Assembly (NCBI RefSeq): GCF_033026475.1
Contig: NC_090210.1
Coordinates: 19,995,894 to 20,059,893 of the forward strand
DNA length: 64,000 bases
Reading direction: 5' to 3'
From: Channa argus
Lineage: Eukaryota
Part shown: positions 8,711 through 13,981 of the stretch, piece after piece
Numbering within the stretch: the stretch's first letter is position 1
Layout of the letters: every line of letters starts with the position of its first letter
Program-made: the position numbers and the translations under genes
The notes under the pieces: model-generated
What the model saw: the letters and a program-made list of their open reading frames with translations, nothing else
Database searches by the model: none
What the model was told of the DNA's origin: nothing

Positions 8711-8782
8711 GTGTCTCTTCTTCTTGATGGTTCTCCTGCGTCTCAACTTGTCTCCGTCCAAATCCTCCTTGTCCTCACTTTC
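8711..8782 (-). CDS. APOL-B exon ESEDKEDLDGDKLRRRRTIKKKRH (basic, NLS-like)
   Basis: Acceptor cttgtcttgcag|GAAAG, donor ACAC|gtgagt. 72 nt. Confidence 0.55.
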
Positions 8783-9044
8783 CTGCAAGACAAGAGAGAA
8801 AAAAATGAAACAGAAACATGCACGTTGCTAAAGGGTTTTAGGGATCGCTAACAGCATTATGAAAGTACGAGGGTGGAGATCATGCCTGGTGTTCAACAGC
8901 TTTGGGCGTCCTCCTGAACATCCCAGCAAACCCGCCTTTTTTCTCCTGTTCAAGAATGAAACGTGAAACATGAATCTGAATCGAAGTCTCAGAAATATTA
9001 AAACATCGGTCAAACTACAAAACAGAGCAACACAAGAGACTTAC

Positions 9045-9116
9045 CTTTGTCGTGGTTTTAGCATCAGAAAGATCACTGCTACTTGGCAGAAATTCCCCGT
9101 ACGCTGAAAGGTTCTC
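9045..9116 (-). CDS. APOL-B module exon (S-rich type) ENLSAYGEFLPSSSDLSDAKTTTK
   Basis: Acceptor ttaaag|GAGAAC, donor ACAAAG|gtaagt. 72 nt. Confidence 0.55.
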
Positions 9117-9844
9117 CTTTAAAATACAAGTACATTAATTCAGTTGCTTTTTAATTGATGTTTACCCACATCTCTATGGTTAAATTTTTTTTTTTTATGA
9201 ATTTATCCAACTACTAATGTAAAAAACTCTTTTAATACTTCAATACTTTTAGTACTTAAATTTCAAATGCAGGACTTTCATTTGCAATAGTGATAAACAG
9301 TTTTCCCACTGTGATGATGATACTTTTACTTATAGGATCAGAGTATTCGTTCTGTTACAGTAGCTGTTTACAAGTTTAAAGACATTTTTTTTAAAAAGTA
9401 CCTGTCACTTTAATGCTGTTGTTTCCACACCTAGTATCTACAGTAAGAGTTTGTTGGTCTTTAGCTTATGTTGAATAATAGAATTTGAAATAATCCCCAA
9501 TAAATAGTTTCTCAGATTGAAGAGTTCAGATTTCTGCAGAAACCTCATTAATAGGGCACATTTGGAACCAGTCTGGACTAGACGTGTACATTCATCTTAT
9601 CAACAGCATCAGGTTTTACAGTGTATAAAATAATGTGTTTTTTTTTTTTAAAGACTCTTTCAGAATGATGCCCAGAAAAATGACTTGCACTGTTGTACTT
9701 AAAAGTGTTAGAGCATGGACTCAATATAGACTTTTTGTAGCAAGTACTTGGACTTTAGTACTGAAATTGTGAAGAGTTCTTTCTCAACTTTCTATGCACC
9801 TAAATCTTAAAATTTTATTTATGTTCTCATGCATCTCATGAAAC

Positions 9845-9962
9845 GGGAACACTTCTCATAGCACTTTGCTTTGATGTTTTCTCCTGGACTTAGATTTTTG
9901 CCTTGCTTTGTACCTCAGCTGTAAGTTGCTTTGGATAAAAATCCAAATGTCTAGATGTAAAT
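9845..9962 (+). mobile_element. Teleost SINE copy (tail …tgtacctcagctgtaagttgctttggataaaaatc…)
   Basis: Near-identical core shared with copies at 20690-20790 and 39860-39960 (ttgccttgtacctcacttgtaagtcgctttggataaaagcgtctgctaaatgactaaatgtaaatg). Confidence 0.6.
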
Positions 9963-9977
9963 GTGTATTTGCGTCAC

Positions 9978-10040
9978 CTCTGAAGTGTCTGCGAGACTGT
10001 CCCAGCTGGCAGACAGTTCCTTTGAGCTGCTGAGAGGATC
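9978..10040 (-). CDS. APOL-B module exon (S-rich) DPLSSSKELSASWDSLADTSE
   Basis: Acceptor ttctgcag|GATCC, donor TCAGAG|gtgacg. 63 nt. Confidence 0.55.
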
Positions 10041-10182
10041 CTGCAGAATAATAAAAGCAATTATAAATCAGTCAGGTTTATTTCAGGTCATTTCTGGAGA
10101 ATTTAACCAATATGAATTCTATAGGATGATTTGCCTAAAAATAAAAGGGTTTTTAAACAACTGTTCAGTTTCGTTTGGTCAC

Positions 10183-10254
10183 CTCAGTAGCAATGGAGCG
10201 TGGCGCCGGTTTAGGAGACTTTTTAAAGATACCTGCCAGTCGTCTTGTTTTCTC
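10183..10254 (-). CDS. APOL-B module exon (FKK type) EKTRRLAGIFKKSPKPAPRSIATE
   Basis: Acceptor gtgtttcag|GAG, donor ACTGAG|gtgacc. 72 nt. Confidence 0.6.
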
Positions 10255-10339
10255 CTGAAACACATTAATAATAAATAACAATCAATGGCAGAAAAGAGAA
10301 AACCCGGCTGTTATTGTGATAATTTGATGACACCAGTAC

Positions 10340-10411
10340 CTTTGATATCATTCCTTCCAACAGATTTTCCAAACTGGCAGATAACTTCTTTTCCTCGCCT
10401 GTGGGTGATTC
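10340..10411 (-). CDS. APOL-B module exon (S-rich) ESPTGEEKKLSASLENLLEGMISK
   Basis: Acceptor gtgttcag|GAATC, donor TCAAAG|gtactg. 72 nt. Confidence 0.55.
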
Positions 10412-10802
10412 CTGAACACAAGAGGAAGCAACACACAAGTTCAGTATCATAACTGTTTTGTAGTATAAATAAAACATGGAACAATACAAGCATTACCACA
10501 GTTTGCTTGTTAGAATAAGTTGATAGTGGGGAAAATGCAGCGGGTTAGACGCTATATGTTTGGACTGAGAAACCTCTGTAAAGTCAGACTCTGAGGTTAT
10601 TGCAGAGTAGGGGGACATGATAGATAAAGACCCTGTTGTCTCCTTTTTAACTCTGGAGACAGACAGCAGCAGACAACATAGAACACGCCGTACATTCTGA
10701 TAGTACCCCAGGTCTTTACAAGTATTATTGTCATGTGGTAGAAAACAAAAAAAAGTTTACTGCTCATCTACTGCTCGGGAGATAAAGAAAACAAACACTG
10801 AC

Positions 10803-10868
10803 CTCATCAAACAAGTTGTCAGAGCTGGCGGATCGTTTGAAGATGCCAGCAAGACCTCTTCTTTTCAT
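10803..10868 (-). CDS. APOL-B module exon (FKK type) MKRRGLAGIFKRSASSDNLFDE
   Basis: Acceptor cttttag|ATG, donor GATGAG|gtcagt. 66 nt. Confidence 0.6.
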
Positions 10869-11106
10869 CTAAAAGACAATCTTTATGATTATTTTTCTCA
10901 CTTAACACATTCAAAGGCGTCTCATGCATCCAATCTCAGAGTGAGTCAGACTCTGGTCGAGTTTTTATATTTGGCTCTTACAAGTTTCATCTAAAGAAAT
11001 GATGATGGATAATGGAAGCACTTCAGGAAGCGCAGGTTGTGGCAGTGAATTGTCTCATGTAGAGAGCTGATTTCCAAAAAGATCTGAGTTTATTAATACA
11101 AAGTAC

Positions 11107-11178
11107 CTTCAGAACACTTGTGTTCACGAGATTCTCACAGCTACTAGAGAACAGATGTTCGCTCTTCTCATCCTGCGC
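11107..11178 (-). CDS. APOL-B module exon (S-rich) AQDEKSEHLFSSSCENLVNTSVLK
   Basis: Acceptor ttaatcag|GCGCAG, donor CTGAAG|gtactt. 72 nt. Confidence 0.5.
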
Positions 11179-12151: not shown

Positions 12152-12526
12152 CTGAAACACATTTACATGAATAGCCTGAGTTTTCTCTCTTTAAAGCTAC
12201 AATGTGCTACTGAAGTGGCACAACCATGAGAAATCAGTACACTCTGCTTCACCCAGCCGCCCTCTGCCTGCTCTTCTGTGCTCCTCTACAGTCTGCTACG
12301 TTCCACCACACTCAGAGCAACACTTTTTACTTTCAGGCATCATTAAATAAAATTACAATAAACTAACTGATCAAGTAAAAAAATAAAAATAAAGAAATAA
12401 AGAAATCAATGAAATTCCGTGGTTTGAGCCTCAAGAAACTTTTAGCGATGAGTTCGCTTCCAGTGTTGTTCTTTGAGTGGGACTTTACAGGAGTTTTTAA
12501 AGCAGATTTTAAAAAAAAATACTCAC

Positions 12527-12586
12527 CTTAGAGGTGTTTTCAGAAAGAACTTCTTTGCTGGTTGAGAAGTCATCATGTGACTGCTT
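12527..12586 (-). CDS. APOL-B module exon (S-rich) KQSHDDFSTSKEVLSENTSK
   Basis: Acceptor cctaattag|AAGCAG, donor TCTAAG|gtgagt. 60 nt. Confidence 0.5.
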
Positions 12587-12889
12587 CTAATTAGGAAAGA
12601 TTTTACAAAATTAGAAAAATAATCACAACCCGTTACACACAAGTGCCGGGTTTTTTCAAAACTAATGGAACAACTGGCAGGGGCCAAAAAACATAATAAT
12701 ATAATAAAAGTATATAGAGGGTGTTTTTTTCTGGAATGACAAGTATTTGTATTTTTAATTCTTTCTCCATTTTTCTGATTGCACTTCTTTTTACCATTTC
12801 AATAAAGGACCTTTACTTGTAAACTGGGGATTTTTACAATGTCATATTTGCGGCTAAGCAAAAAAGATGTGAATACATGAAACACCCAC

Positions 12890-12949
12890 CTTGCTCTCAG
12901 ACAGGCTGACAGTGCTGTCAGAGAGTTGACTGTGCAGTGACTCTGCAGC
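12890..12949 (-). CDS. APOL-B module exon (S-rich) AAESLHSQLSDSTVSLSESK
   Basis: Acceptor cctttag|GCTGCAG, donor AGCAAG|gtgggt. 60 nt. Confidence 0.5.
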
Positions 12950-13235
12950 CTAAAGGCAACATAAATGTTATTCGGCCTGTGCGAACATGACACTGAGCAG
13001 AGTTACACACCAAGCTGAAGCTGCTTTAATCCAACAGTCTTGGCAAAAAAAAAAAAAAAAAATCCCACTTGATGAACGTTCTGTTTAGATTTTGCTGAAT
13101 CTGTCTTAGAGCTGTGTTTGTAGCTGCTGTGTAACTGCACATAGATGCAGACCTCAAACTGAGCAGTTACTCAAACAATAACATGTAAAAACAAAAAAGT
13201 ACAGTGTGTTTCTAAAATATATTCAGCGATATTAC

Positions 13236-13307
13236 CTGCCCAGATGTCTCTGCTACAGGAATCTTGTTAGCCTTTCGGAGGAAGCCACTGAAAAATCCTC
13301 CTTTTTC
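13236..13307 (-). CDS. APOL-B module exon (FKK type) EKGGFFSGFLRKANKIPVAETSGQ
   Basis: Acceptor gtcctgcag|GAAAAAGG, donor GGGCAG|gtaata. 72 nt. Confidence 0.6.
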
Positions 13308-13412
13308 CTGCAGGACATTAAACAAATGAATCCCCACCATTTGGGATGTGTCATATTAGGATGATGGTGAAAATGCTGCTTCATCTATCTGCCACTTCAC
13401 AGAGGAACTCAC

Positions 13413-13481
13413 CTTTGAGTTTTCCGACAGATTATCTTTACTGCCGGTCACTGACTGGTCACCGTTTGGACAAGATGGGTC
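13413..13481 (-). CDS. APOL-B module exon (S-rich) DPSCPNGDQSVTGSKDNLSENSK
   Basis: Acceptor gctcctcag|GACCC, donor TCAAAG|gtgagt. 69 nt. Confidence 0.55.
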
Positions 13482-13587
13482 CTGAGGAGCATCAATTAAA
13501 GTAACGATATAAGCAGTTGCTTAAGAAATCTGTCGCTGCACAAAACTGAGCATGTTTTATTTTTTATTTTTTTCCCATTTACATCAC

Positions 13588-13662
13588 CTCCTCAGTCTGA
13601 GAAGCTGCTGTTGGTTTCTGAGACTTCCTGAATATTTTCCCACTGAACAGTCTTCCTTTTTC
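13588..13662 (-). CDS. APOL-B module exon (FKK type) EKGRLFSGKIFRKSQKPTAASQTEE
   Basis: Acceptor gtgtttcag|GAAAAAGG, donor GAGGAG|gtgatg. 75 nt. Confidence 0.55.
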
Positions 13663-13746
13663 CTGAAACACATGCATGAATGTTGTACACATCAGAAATT
13701 TTGGTGAAGGCCAGGTGAGGTCCTATTGTGATCCAAAGCTGCTCAC

Positions 13747-13809
13747 CTTGTTGTTTTCGGGCAGACTGTCACTGCTGGTCGACAGCTCGCCGCGAGCCCT
13801 CCCAATCTC
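13747..13809 (-). CDS. APOL-B module exon (S-rich) EIGRARGELSTSSDSLPENNK
   Basis: Acceptor ttgtttcag|GAGATTGG, donor AACAAG|gtgagc. 63 nt. Confidence 0.55.
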
Positions 13810-13912
13810 CTGAAACAAAGAAGACAGAGAAATGCTGACAAACCCATACAAATATTAAAAGATATTAAAGTAAGATGTTTAAGAAGCAGAAACCCATGAT
13901 GCCATCTCCTAC

Positions 13913-13981
13913 CTGTTCAGGTGCATCATCGTCTGGTTTGCTGGATTTTTTAAAGATGCCAGAGAAGAATCCCCCGTTATC
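13913..13981 (-). CDS. APOL-B module exon (FKK type) DNGGFFSGIFKKSSKPDDDAPEQ
   Basis: Acceptor ctttgcag|GATAACGG, donor GAACAG|gtagga. 69 nt. Confidence 0.6.

Follow-up and report, generated by a model that had tools for sequence, protein, structure and literature searches.

Several repetitive proteins of disordered or extended structure, among them tropoelastin (ELN), the fibrillar collagens with their 54-nt exons and the PEVK region of titin, are encoded by genes in which each module occupies a small exon and all these exons have one phase. Elastin alternates two types of module, and arrays of this kind expand when exons duplicate and are shortened by cassette splicing. Here we describe an array of such mini-exons in a 64-kb window of the Channa argus genome (the 64,000-nucleotide stretch of contig NC_090210.1 that was analysed; positions are those of the window, and all features described lie on its minus strand), whose DNA is vertebrate with a GC content of ~38%. 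The array is real, and we conclude, with a probability of about 0.8, that it codes for the disordered N-terminal half, or arm, of Channa argus apold1a, a gene of the ApoL family. Its sequences are unrelated to those of tropoelastin, collagen and titin, which are matrix or sarcomeric springs, whereas the array forms the arm of an intracellular ApoL protein. The array is an ordinary mechanism in an undescribed instance, belonging to the familiar class of constant-phase mini-exon proteins and not constituting a new kind of genetic element.

ApoL proteins matter in human kidney disease (APOL1) and in vascular biology (APOLD1). Human APOLD1 and APOL1-6 share the ApoL domain (PF05461) with the gene described here, but we know of no such N-terminal module array in mammalian ApoL proteins. 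The closest counterparts are teleost models of the same gene, annotated as apold1a or si:rp71-1g18.13 (Osmerus eperlanus XP_062338498, Sardina pilchardus XP_062386586 and Anabas testudineus LOC113171725). Like the Channa gene, they combine PxxPxR motifs, an array of two module types (termed B and A below), an RRRTIKKKR-VVSFRVK linker, MEWWNTVxGW, the ApoL domain, a charged tail and a ...GDGLYI end, and in the annotated Osmerus and Nematolebias genes each module sits on one symmetric exon. The Channa gene differs in having 17 modules, compared with ~24 in Osmerus, in the loss of several B exons and in one GC donor. Teleost apol1 and apold1b carry the same two module types on symmetric mini-exons before the ApoL domain, but their modules are fewer and more degenerate, and the apol1 protein, with an ApoL domain ~44% identical, lacks the long charged tail.

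Exon array and gene identity

The assignment to the ApoL family comes from the region just 3' of the array, where tblastn placed an ApoL domain at 7253-6839 and 6428-~5775 together with conserved linker exons. The whole gene (apold1a, alias si:rp71-1g18.13; 4800-16620) was assembled as 28 coding exons, with a 3684-nt coding sequence running without internal stop from an ATG at 16620 to a stop codon at 4800-4802, an intact open reading frame (ORF) of 1227 aa. The encoded protein opens with a Pro-rich N-terminus containing PxxPxR and continues through the module array, an RRRRTIKKKRH-VVSFRIKK linker, MEWWNTVKGW and the ApoL domain to a K/E/R-rich tail that closes with LGDGLYI; Pfam ApoL PF05461 matched it downstream of the array with 107.5 bits against a cut-off of 25.9 (E=1.2e-30). 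Hundreds of teleost proteins, under the names apold1a, apold1b or si:rp71-1g18.13, matched a query of linker plus ApoL domain, the top matches being apold1a or si:rp71-1g18.13 by name at 65-82% identity; both NCBI and UniRef give orthologues the name apold1a. The concatenated array peptides retrieved teleost proteins only, under automatic names such as 'dao-5-like' and 'titin homolog', although one Nothobranchius match was named 'apolipoprotein L domain containing 1' and had the Pfam ApoL domain. By collinear architecture and highest similarity, the gene is assigned to the teleost apold1a orthologue group.

Within 8711-13981 lie 18 exon candidates of 54-75 nt, all multiples of 3, open in frame 0, of phase 0-0 and preceded by an AG acceptor. 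The sequence-only reading, from which this work started, had counted more than 20 exons in this interval, a number reached only beyond it: with phase 0-0 throughout and lengths of 27-75 nt, exons 2-24 (16458 down to 7685) make an unbroken run of 23. The regular exon lengths and acceptors it described hold for every exon, but its GT donor holds for 17 of the 18, the exon at 8886-8945 having GC; an ...AG exon end is likewise present in 17 of 18. Each exon encodes one module of 18-25 residues. Seven are basic and aromatic (B: E1, E3, E5, E8, E12, E14 and E17), with the consensus E-K-G-G-x-F-x-G-Φ-F-K-K-S-P-K-P and then a short acidic tail, ten are acidic and Ser-rich (A), ending in E-L-S-A-S-x-D-S-L-S-E-N-x-x-K, and E18 is neither (X). 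The peptides quoted beforehand were all reproduced exactly by the exon translations, and the distinction of two module types stands, but their alternation is imperfect, the order being B A B A B A A B A A A B A B A A B X.

Profile hidden Markov models (HMMs) of the two module halves matched the minus strand only, in two gene bodies at 8.9-14.0 kb and 28.0-30.3 kb, outside which the six-frame translation of the 64 kb gave no match; some matches fell on exons left out of profile building. The confinement of the matches to two gene bodies argues that the array is more than chance. Extra modules were sought between 13982 and 16600 and inside the introns, and none were found there.

The gene starts with exon 1 (16573-16620; start codon, MEACMMKPEVKKKPKP, donor gtgaga), located by tblastn with the N-termini of Cottoperca, Polymixia, Lampris and Anabas, and continues with two phase 0-0 exons, exon 2 (16432-16458; 27 nt, PKPPPKPTE) and exon 3 (16185-16256; 72 nt, IKSNEPETPPVKTPPVVPPRPTDS), the latter with an SH3-ligand-like PxxPxR motif. 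The array begins with E1 (B, 13913-13981; DNGGFFSGIFKKSSKPDDDAPEQ), scored at 29.3 bits by the B-module HMM whose training included it, E2 (A, 13747-13809; EIGRARGELSTSSDSLPENNK), from the exon scan and module HMM, E3 (B, 13588-13662; EKGRLFSGKIFRKSQKPTAASQTEE), matched by the module HMM and 72% similar in nucleotides to E8 over 108 nt, and E4 (A, 13413-13481; DPSCPNGDQSVTGSKDNLSENSK), also matched by the module HMM, with the Anabas counterpart DPQSLNGDVSGSNDDHSEHSK. Module HMM and Anabas alignment together support E5 (B, 13236-13307; EKGGFFSGFLRKANKIPVAETSGQ), E6 (A, 12890-12949; AAESLHSQLSDSTVSLSESK), E7 (A, 12527-12586; KQSHDDFSTSKEVLSENTSK), which matched the A-module HMM though outside its training set, and E10 (A, 11359-11424; DRDTEEELSASNSDLSESNTTK). 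E8 (B, 12080-12151; VKGGIFTGILKKCPKPSEDADPEE), again outside the training set, scored 22.7 bits with the B-module HMM and has a hydrophobic moment (muH) of 0.72 (p=0.001), while E9 (degenerate A, 11570-11623; IETPDNKLLLGNENLSEQ) and E11 (A, 11107-11178; AQDEKSEHLFSSSCENLVNTSVLK) come from the exon scan and the Anabas alignment. E12 (B with an acidic tail, 10803-10868; MKRRGLAGIFKRSASSDNLFDE) is orthologous to EKKGGPAGIFKRWLSSEDLFDE in Nematolebias and VKRRGLAGLFQRSASNDNLCDE in Anabas; the alignments to both fish also support E13 (A, 10340-10411; ESPTGEEKKLSASLENLLEGMISK) and, with the module HMM, E14 (B, 10183-10254; EKTRRLAGIFKKSPKPAPRSIATE).

The Nematolebias alignment supports E15 (A, 9978-10040; DPLSSSKELSASWDSLADTSE), together with the module HMM, and E16 (A, 9045-9116; ENLSAYGEFLPSSSDLSDAKTTTK), and E17 (B, 8886-8945; EKKGGFAGMFRRTPKAVEHQ), the exon with the GC donor, was scored at 22.1 bits by the B-module HMM from outside its training set. 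E17 ends CAG|gcatga, and read-through in frame would add two codons before a stop; in Channa argus the inclusion of this exon may be weak, or the exon may be skipped. E18 (8711-8782; ESEDKEDLDGDKLRRRRTIKKKRH) is acidic and then poly-basic, its RRRTIKKKR motif being kept in orthologues. Three phase 0-0 linker exons follow, of 63 nt (8183-8245; VVSFRIKKTFPQIPTVTLSSQ), 63 nt (8016-8078; PSDKMPIIEETVELCQLNQSQ) and 75 nt (7685-7759; EDTVEVQPVEMAPYPTEDNPLESEQ), the last ending the run of 23 symmetric exons, and the uniform phase is broken by two short exons within 7424-7614 (7578-7614 and 7424-7469; ESELMEWWNTVKG/WTEWNETSNSQDEE). The first ApoL-domain exon (6839-7253; PF05461) is 88-95% identical to those of Nothobranchius and Anabas, and the last exon (4800-6428) encodes the second half of the domain, the K/E/R-rich tail and the C-terminus ...LGDGLYI before the stop. 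Within the last exon, the ~370-residue low-complexity tail (4800-5900) produces a strong GC/AT skew at 4-6 kb, and the C-terminal motif is conserved as ...EDGLYI in Cynoglossus, ...NDGLDI in Osmerus and ...GDGLYI in Anabas.

Several observations weigh against this assignment. A Channa argus apold1a protein was not found in a collection of 5.8 billion proteins, in which the best matches were 41% identical over the array and 82% over the ApoL part, and the model seems to be missing from the Channa argus annotations in that collection. Expression of these Channa exons is predicted from their conservation. The GC donor of E17 is non-canonical, the Nematolebias orthologue of E17 using GT, and the AlphaFold2 model that bears on disorder has poor overall confidence (mean predicted local distance difference test, pLDDT, of 43). 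Finally, many database models split the array from the ApoL part (Lampris, Cottoperca and Hippocampus), which looks like a systematic annotation problem. Split models in several fish bear misleading names (dao-5-like, titin homolog, claspin-like and FAM21/CAPZIP).

Conservation and origin of the array

In the annotated apold1a of Nematolebias whitei, each module has its own phase 0-0 exon (48-75 nt) and the series runs on to the ApoL domain. Channa E12-E18 pair with these exons 1:1 and in the same order. Across E12-E18 the proportions of nonsynonymous (pN) and synonymous (pS) differences are 0.28 and 0.64, giving a dN/dS of ~0.25 at a dS of ~1.4, and by this measure the array exons are shown to be kept under purifying selection. 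The whole arm can also be aligned collinearly, one module after another, with that of Anabas (LOC113171725), and the ApoL exons of the two fish share 95% identity. The differences between Channa and Anabas are whole modules present or absent: Channa has no counterpart of two B modules, of an A module and of two PxxP units found in Anabas, and Channa E1-E3 are absent from the Anabas isoform compared. The B exon DKSIFSGMFKKTPK, which four other fish (Nematolebias, Ilyodon, Hippocampus and Nothobranchius) have between their orthologues of E12 and E13, left no trace at 10412-10802, and two more Anabas B exons are missing in Channa between E9 and E10 and between E10 and E11, where the introns are only ~145-180 nt long. 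The imperfect alternation of the Channa array, with its A-A and A-A-A runs, is attributed to this lineage-specific loss of whole exons.

A 45-position profile built from 22 module pairs, searched against 1.84 billion representative proteins at E<=1e-3, matched 104 proteins, some with up to 19 matched stretches. All 30 clusters that carried names were teleost (moray eel, sardine, catfish, salmonids, smelt, cod and many percomorphs), with no non-teleost protein among them, and the other 74 were unnamed; an ApoL domain was present in all six long matches that were scanned. Orthologues from eels to percomorphs have up to ~19 module pairs, one module per exon. Conservation among 797 unique module pairs is highest at G4, F6, G8, F10 and K12 of the B module and at L32, S33, S35, D37, L39 and E41 of the A module. 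A related pair (NPGMFKGMMQKVNPFKS and SIHSDLSSSAGSLAEN) occurs in apold1b, indicating that the module unit predates the apold1a/apold1b split. Judged by this distribution, the array design is old and teleost-wide.

Literature searches on apold1a and apold1b, on the names of the zebrafish clones and on the evolution of ApoL genes in teleosts yielded no published description of the array. A zebrafish apol1 study used a 2.6-kb locus without mention of an N-terminal array (PMC4492502), and a study of APOL evolution, which takes an APOLD1-like gene as the family ancestor and traces APOLD1 to amniote ancestry, is silent on fish genes and on the N-terminal array (PMC8557400). Searches of Pfam, NCBIfam and Protein Data Bank (PDB) sequences with the array and the module profile returned nothing significant, and PF26369, precomputed for one homologue, was not reproduced in our own Pfam scan. 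Matches to the kinesin KAR3 were set aside as chance (E ~0.5). FG-nucleoporin repeats, clathrin-box, AP2-appendage and pLxIS motifs and antimicrobial-peptide precursors were also rejected, the conserved positions not appearing to fit their consensus sequences.

The same-type exons are homologous, as seen in blastn pairs (E3/E8, E8/E14, E1/E5, E2/E4 and E2/E15) and in profile matches to all copies, and tandem exon duplication, proposed in the sequence-only reading, therefore stands as the origin of the array. It does not stand as a recent event in Channa. That reading had held that a self-alignment devoid of intron-level similarity between units would refute its proposal, and self-alignment of 8.5-14.2 kb gave similarity in the exons and ~10-20 flanking nt and none between introns, the exon copies being 64-82% identical over short stretches only. 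The 1:1 match of E12-E18 with Nematolebias and the collinearity with Anabas indicate that most copies predate the split of these orders. In Osmerus eperlanus apold1a, by contrast with Channa, blocks of 357-408 nt that include ~200 intronic nt repeat at 72-75% identity; for example, 5172-5560 aligns with 5505-5891 at 72.5% over 408 nt, with an offset of 333 nt that corresponds to an A exon, intron, B exon and intron. These intron-spanning repeats identify the duplication unit as an exon pair with its introns, and in the Osmerus exon map B and A alternate regularly through about eleven pairs, interrupted once, by an A-A run close to the 3' end. From these alignments the Channa copies are shown to be ancient, in a family that evolves by birth and death of exon pairs. 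The ancestral unit is thus a pair of one basic/aromatic B exon and one acidic Ser-rich A exon, multiplied together with its introns by tandem duplication that is still visible in Osmerus, and the Channa copies, most of them old and held by purifying selection, have been thinned by the loss of whole exons in this lineage.

Two other accounts of the array were weighed against this history. The absence of a Channa argus apold1a protein from the collection, although the neighbouring apol1 is annotated, the GC donor at E17 and the lack here of at least three B exons found in relatives might suggest that the array is a decaying or unexpressed remnant, or a set of pseudo-exons; we regard this as improbable, given that 28 of 28 exons are open in a 1227-aa ORF without a stop, that 27 of 27 acceptors and 26 of 27 donors are intact, that the ApoL exon is 95% identical to that of Anabas and that dN/dS is 0.25. 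We consider it very unlikely, and somewhat less likely again, that the array is a recent and unstable tandem duplication whose copy number varies between individuals. Module number does vary among the species compared (Channa, Osmerus, Anabas and others), and Osmerus has young duplicates with intron similarity, but the Channa array has no alignable introns and exon copies merely 64-82% identical, which leaves little substrate for unequal crossing-over, and E12-E18 have 1:1 orthologues in another fish order at a dS of ~1.4.

Properties and candidate function of the arm

The arm is rich in S (15.6%), K (11.2%) and E (10.9%), as well as D and G, and the fraction of its residues that are charged is 0.34. 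Net charge is +2 to +5 in the B heads, 0 to -5 in the B tails and -1 to -5 in the A exons, an alternation of charge blocks that would make the chain a block polyampholyte. The AlphaFold2 model of the Nematolebias orthologue, which is poor as a whole and so gives weak evidence, shows no secondary structure across the array (pLDDT 30-44).

Two functional suggestions made from the sequence fared differently. The A modules had been described as clustered CK2-type phosphorylation sites, but the A exons contain 12 [ST]xx[DE] motifs against 11.8 +/- 2.7 in shuffled sequences (p=0.53), and clustering beyond what composition gives is not supported. Two Ser and two Leu are the best-conserved A-module positions in the 797 pairs, and phosphorylation of the A modules is possible. 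The FKK peptides of the B modules had been proposed as membrane-binding amphipathic elements, which is plausible, with weak support for a helix: all seven B heads have a muH(11) of 0.53-0.72. Only about half of them beat shuffled sequences, however (p<=0.05 in three of seven, ~0.05 in two and 0.13-0.17 in two), and the two B residues of highest conservation are glycines that lie within the motif. Together with the flanking GG and PKP, two conserved Gly positions would limit any helix to ~9 residues, and the poor AlphaFold2 model contains no helix at the B motif.

A known unstructured basic and aromatic membrane-binding segment is the effector domain of MARCKS, with 13 basic and 5 Phe residues in 25. 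The B heads are similar in placing Phe and Lys/Arg amid Ser, and are likewise an unstructured candidate for electrostatic and aromatic insertion that could be reversed by phosphorylation. Unlike MARCKS, to which they have no sequence homology, they contain 3-6 K/R and 2-3 aromatic or large hydrophobic residues in 16 positions at a net charge of +2 to +5, and so fall short of the MARCKS-type density of ~13 K/R and ~5 Phe in 25 residues. By analogy, they may act in a MARCKS-like manner, without membership of that class; any binding would depend on the avidity of many copies.

The uniform phase 0-0 of the 23 consecutive exons means that any subset of them can be skipped without a frameshift. At the annotation level, Osmerus isoform X3 equals X1 minus exactly exons 20 and 21, and Channa apol1 isoform X5 has exactly four exons fewer than the longer model. 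Orthologues are listed with up to 16 isoforms (X1-X16), and in one Nothobranchius protein an A module is spliced straight to the pre-ApoL exon, with five exons skipped. Cassette splicing would in this way tune the number of modules. Isoforms X6 and X7 of Osmerus eperlanus apold1a have a long N-terminal stretch (MSALRTTTLRGKEDYS...) that cannot be aligned to the other isoforms; it looks like module exons read in another frame and is probably an annotation artefact of an alternative start.

As a tentative reading of these properties, the arm would be flexible and multivalent, bind acidic membranes or a repeated partner, and position or restrain the ApoL domain in a splice-tunable way. Positive/hydrophobic blocks would alternate with negative ones along a flexible polyampholyte, many weak basic-aromatic patches would together provide avidity for the membrane or partner, and the arm would position or gate the membrane-inserting ApoL domain. 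About equally likely, in our view, is a protein scaffold whose modules serve as short linear motifs for the repeated docking of a folded partner, as in the retromer-binding LFa repeats of FAM21. Conservation of specific residues (G4, F6, G8, F10, K12, L32, S33, S35 and L39) and not of general charge and hydrophobicity favours such docking, as do the glycines that disfavour a helix in the B motif and the N-terminal SH3-ligand-like PxxPxR motifs, which suggest an adaptor-like arm; on the other side, there is no known partner, no Pfam family or solved complex was matched, and a basic and aromatic composition beside a membrane-inserting domain suits lipid binding equally well. It is extremely unlikely that the product is a polyprotein precursor cut into many cationic antimicrobial-like FKK peptides. 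The B heads are similar in composition to short cationic amphipathic fish peptides, but the N-terminus (MEACMMKPEVKKKPKP) is not a signal peptide, the modules lack flanking dibasic processing sites, the B head is only ~12 residues long with conserved Gly and Pro, and the array is fused to a cytosolic-type ApoL domain.

A broader and more doubtful form of the flexible-arm reading is that the B/A pair array is a teleost-wide invention of apol1, apold1a and apold1b that serves as a splice-programmable multivalent tether to a membrane or partner. Cassette splicing would then select how many positive-aromatic and negative Ser-rich blocks are present and in what order, and these blocks, possibly switched by phosphorylation, would set the hold or release of the pore-forming ApoL domain at the membrane.

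The neighbouring apol1 gene and implications for ApoL biology

The second gene body with modules, called paralog A in the sequence-only reading, is Channa argus apol1 (apolipoprotein L1-like; 22277-31322). It is matched exon by exon at 100% identity by two proteins of this species, Q8A73_015453 and 'apolipoprotein L1-like isoform X5'. The five modules counted there beforehand were exact, and the mapping of annotated proteins indicates that the five exons are used in annotated models (30218-30289, B; 29388-29456, A; 28919-28993, A-like; 28023-28094, B; 27873-27941, A). Pfam ApoL PF05461 matched the ORF at 129.9 bits. To call the two genes paralogs was imprecise: they are two different ApoL-family genes, apol1 and apold1a, whose ApoL domains are only ~44% identical. 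A candidate sixth module of B type (DKGGLVKGMFRRSTQ; ~29166-29210) has a good acceptor and a weak gttacc donor and is matched by the B-module HMM, yet neither annotated Channa model includes it; its use would turn the apol1 series into a strict B-A-B-A-B-A.

PxxPxR motifs occur in both genes, as PPVVPPRPTDS at 16185-16256 in apold1a and as TPLVPLRPTEE and TPVAPPRPPKE at 27127-27198 and 26741-26809 in apol1, where the two exons are those skipped in isoform X5; Anabas apold1a has three copies. These motifs resemble the C-terminal SH3 ligand of p47phox. Matches of p47_phox_C to the PxVPPRP motif were sub-threshold only (E 0.05-0.08 in orthologues), and precomputed PF08944 matches are listed for salmonid apol1. 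Upstream of apol1 on the same strand lies a TEP1-like gene (telomerase protein component 1; ~33400-62000), recognized by Beta-prop_TEP1_C (E=1.2e-15), DUF4062 (E=6e-13) and WD40 exons. Human APOLD1 is not known to have such a tep1 neighbourhood, and the name 'apold1' may not reflect true orthology with APOLD1. In Anabas, the apold1a-like LOC113171725 and LOC113171727 and the apol1-like LOC113172247 share one 23.4-Mb contig.

The main interest of the array lies in ApoL biology and in the annotation of fish genomes. Fish ApoL genes carry a large, conserved and modular N-terminal arm for which we found no database entry or paper, and automated annotations often detach it as a 'titin-like' or 'dao-5-like' gene; treating arm and ApoL domain as one gene would improve annotation. 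The locus also illustrates, in compact and natural form, how a disordered region with charge blocks can be built by the duplication of exon pairs. Zebrafish apol1 has served as a stand-in for human APOL1, and recognition of an arm made of cassette exons would inform the design of knock-down and knock-out experiments in fish. If the tether reading is true, the published zebrafish 'apol1' models, based on a short gene model, would have ignored half of the protein.

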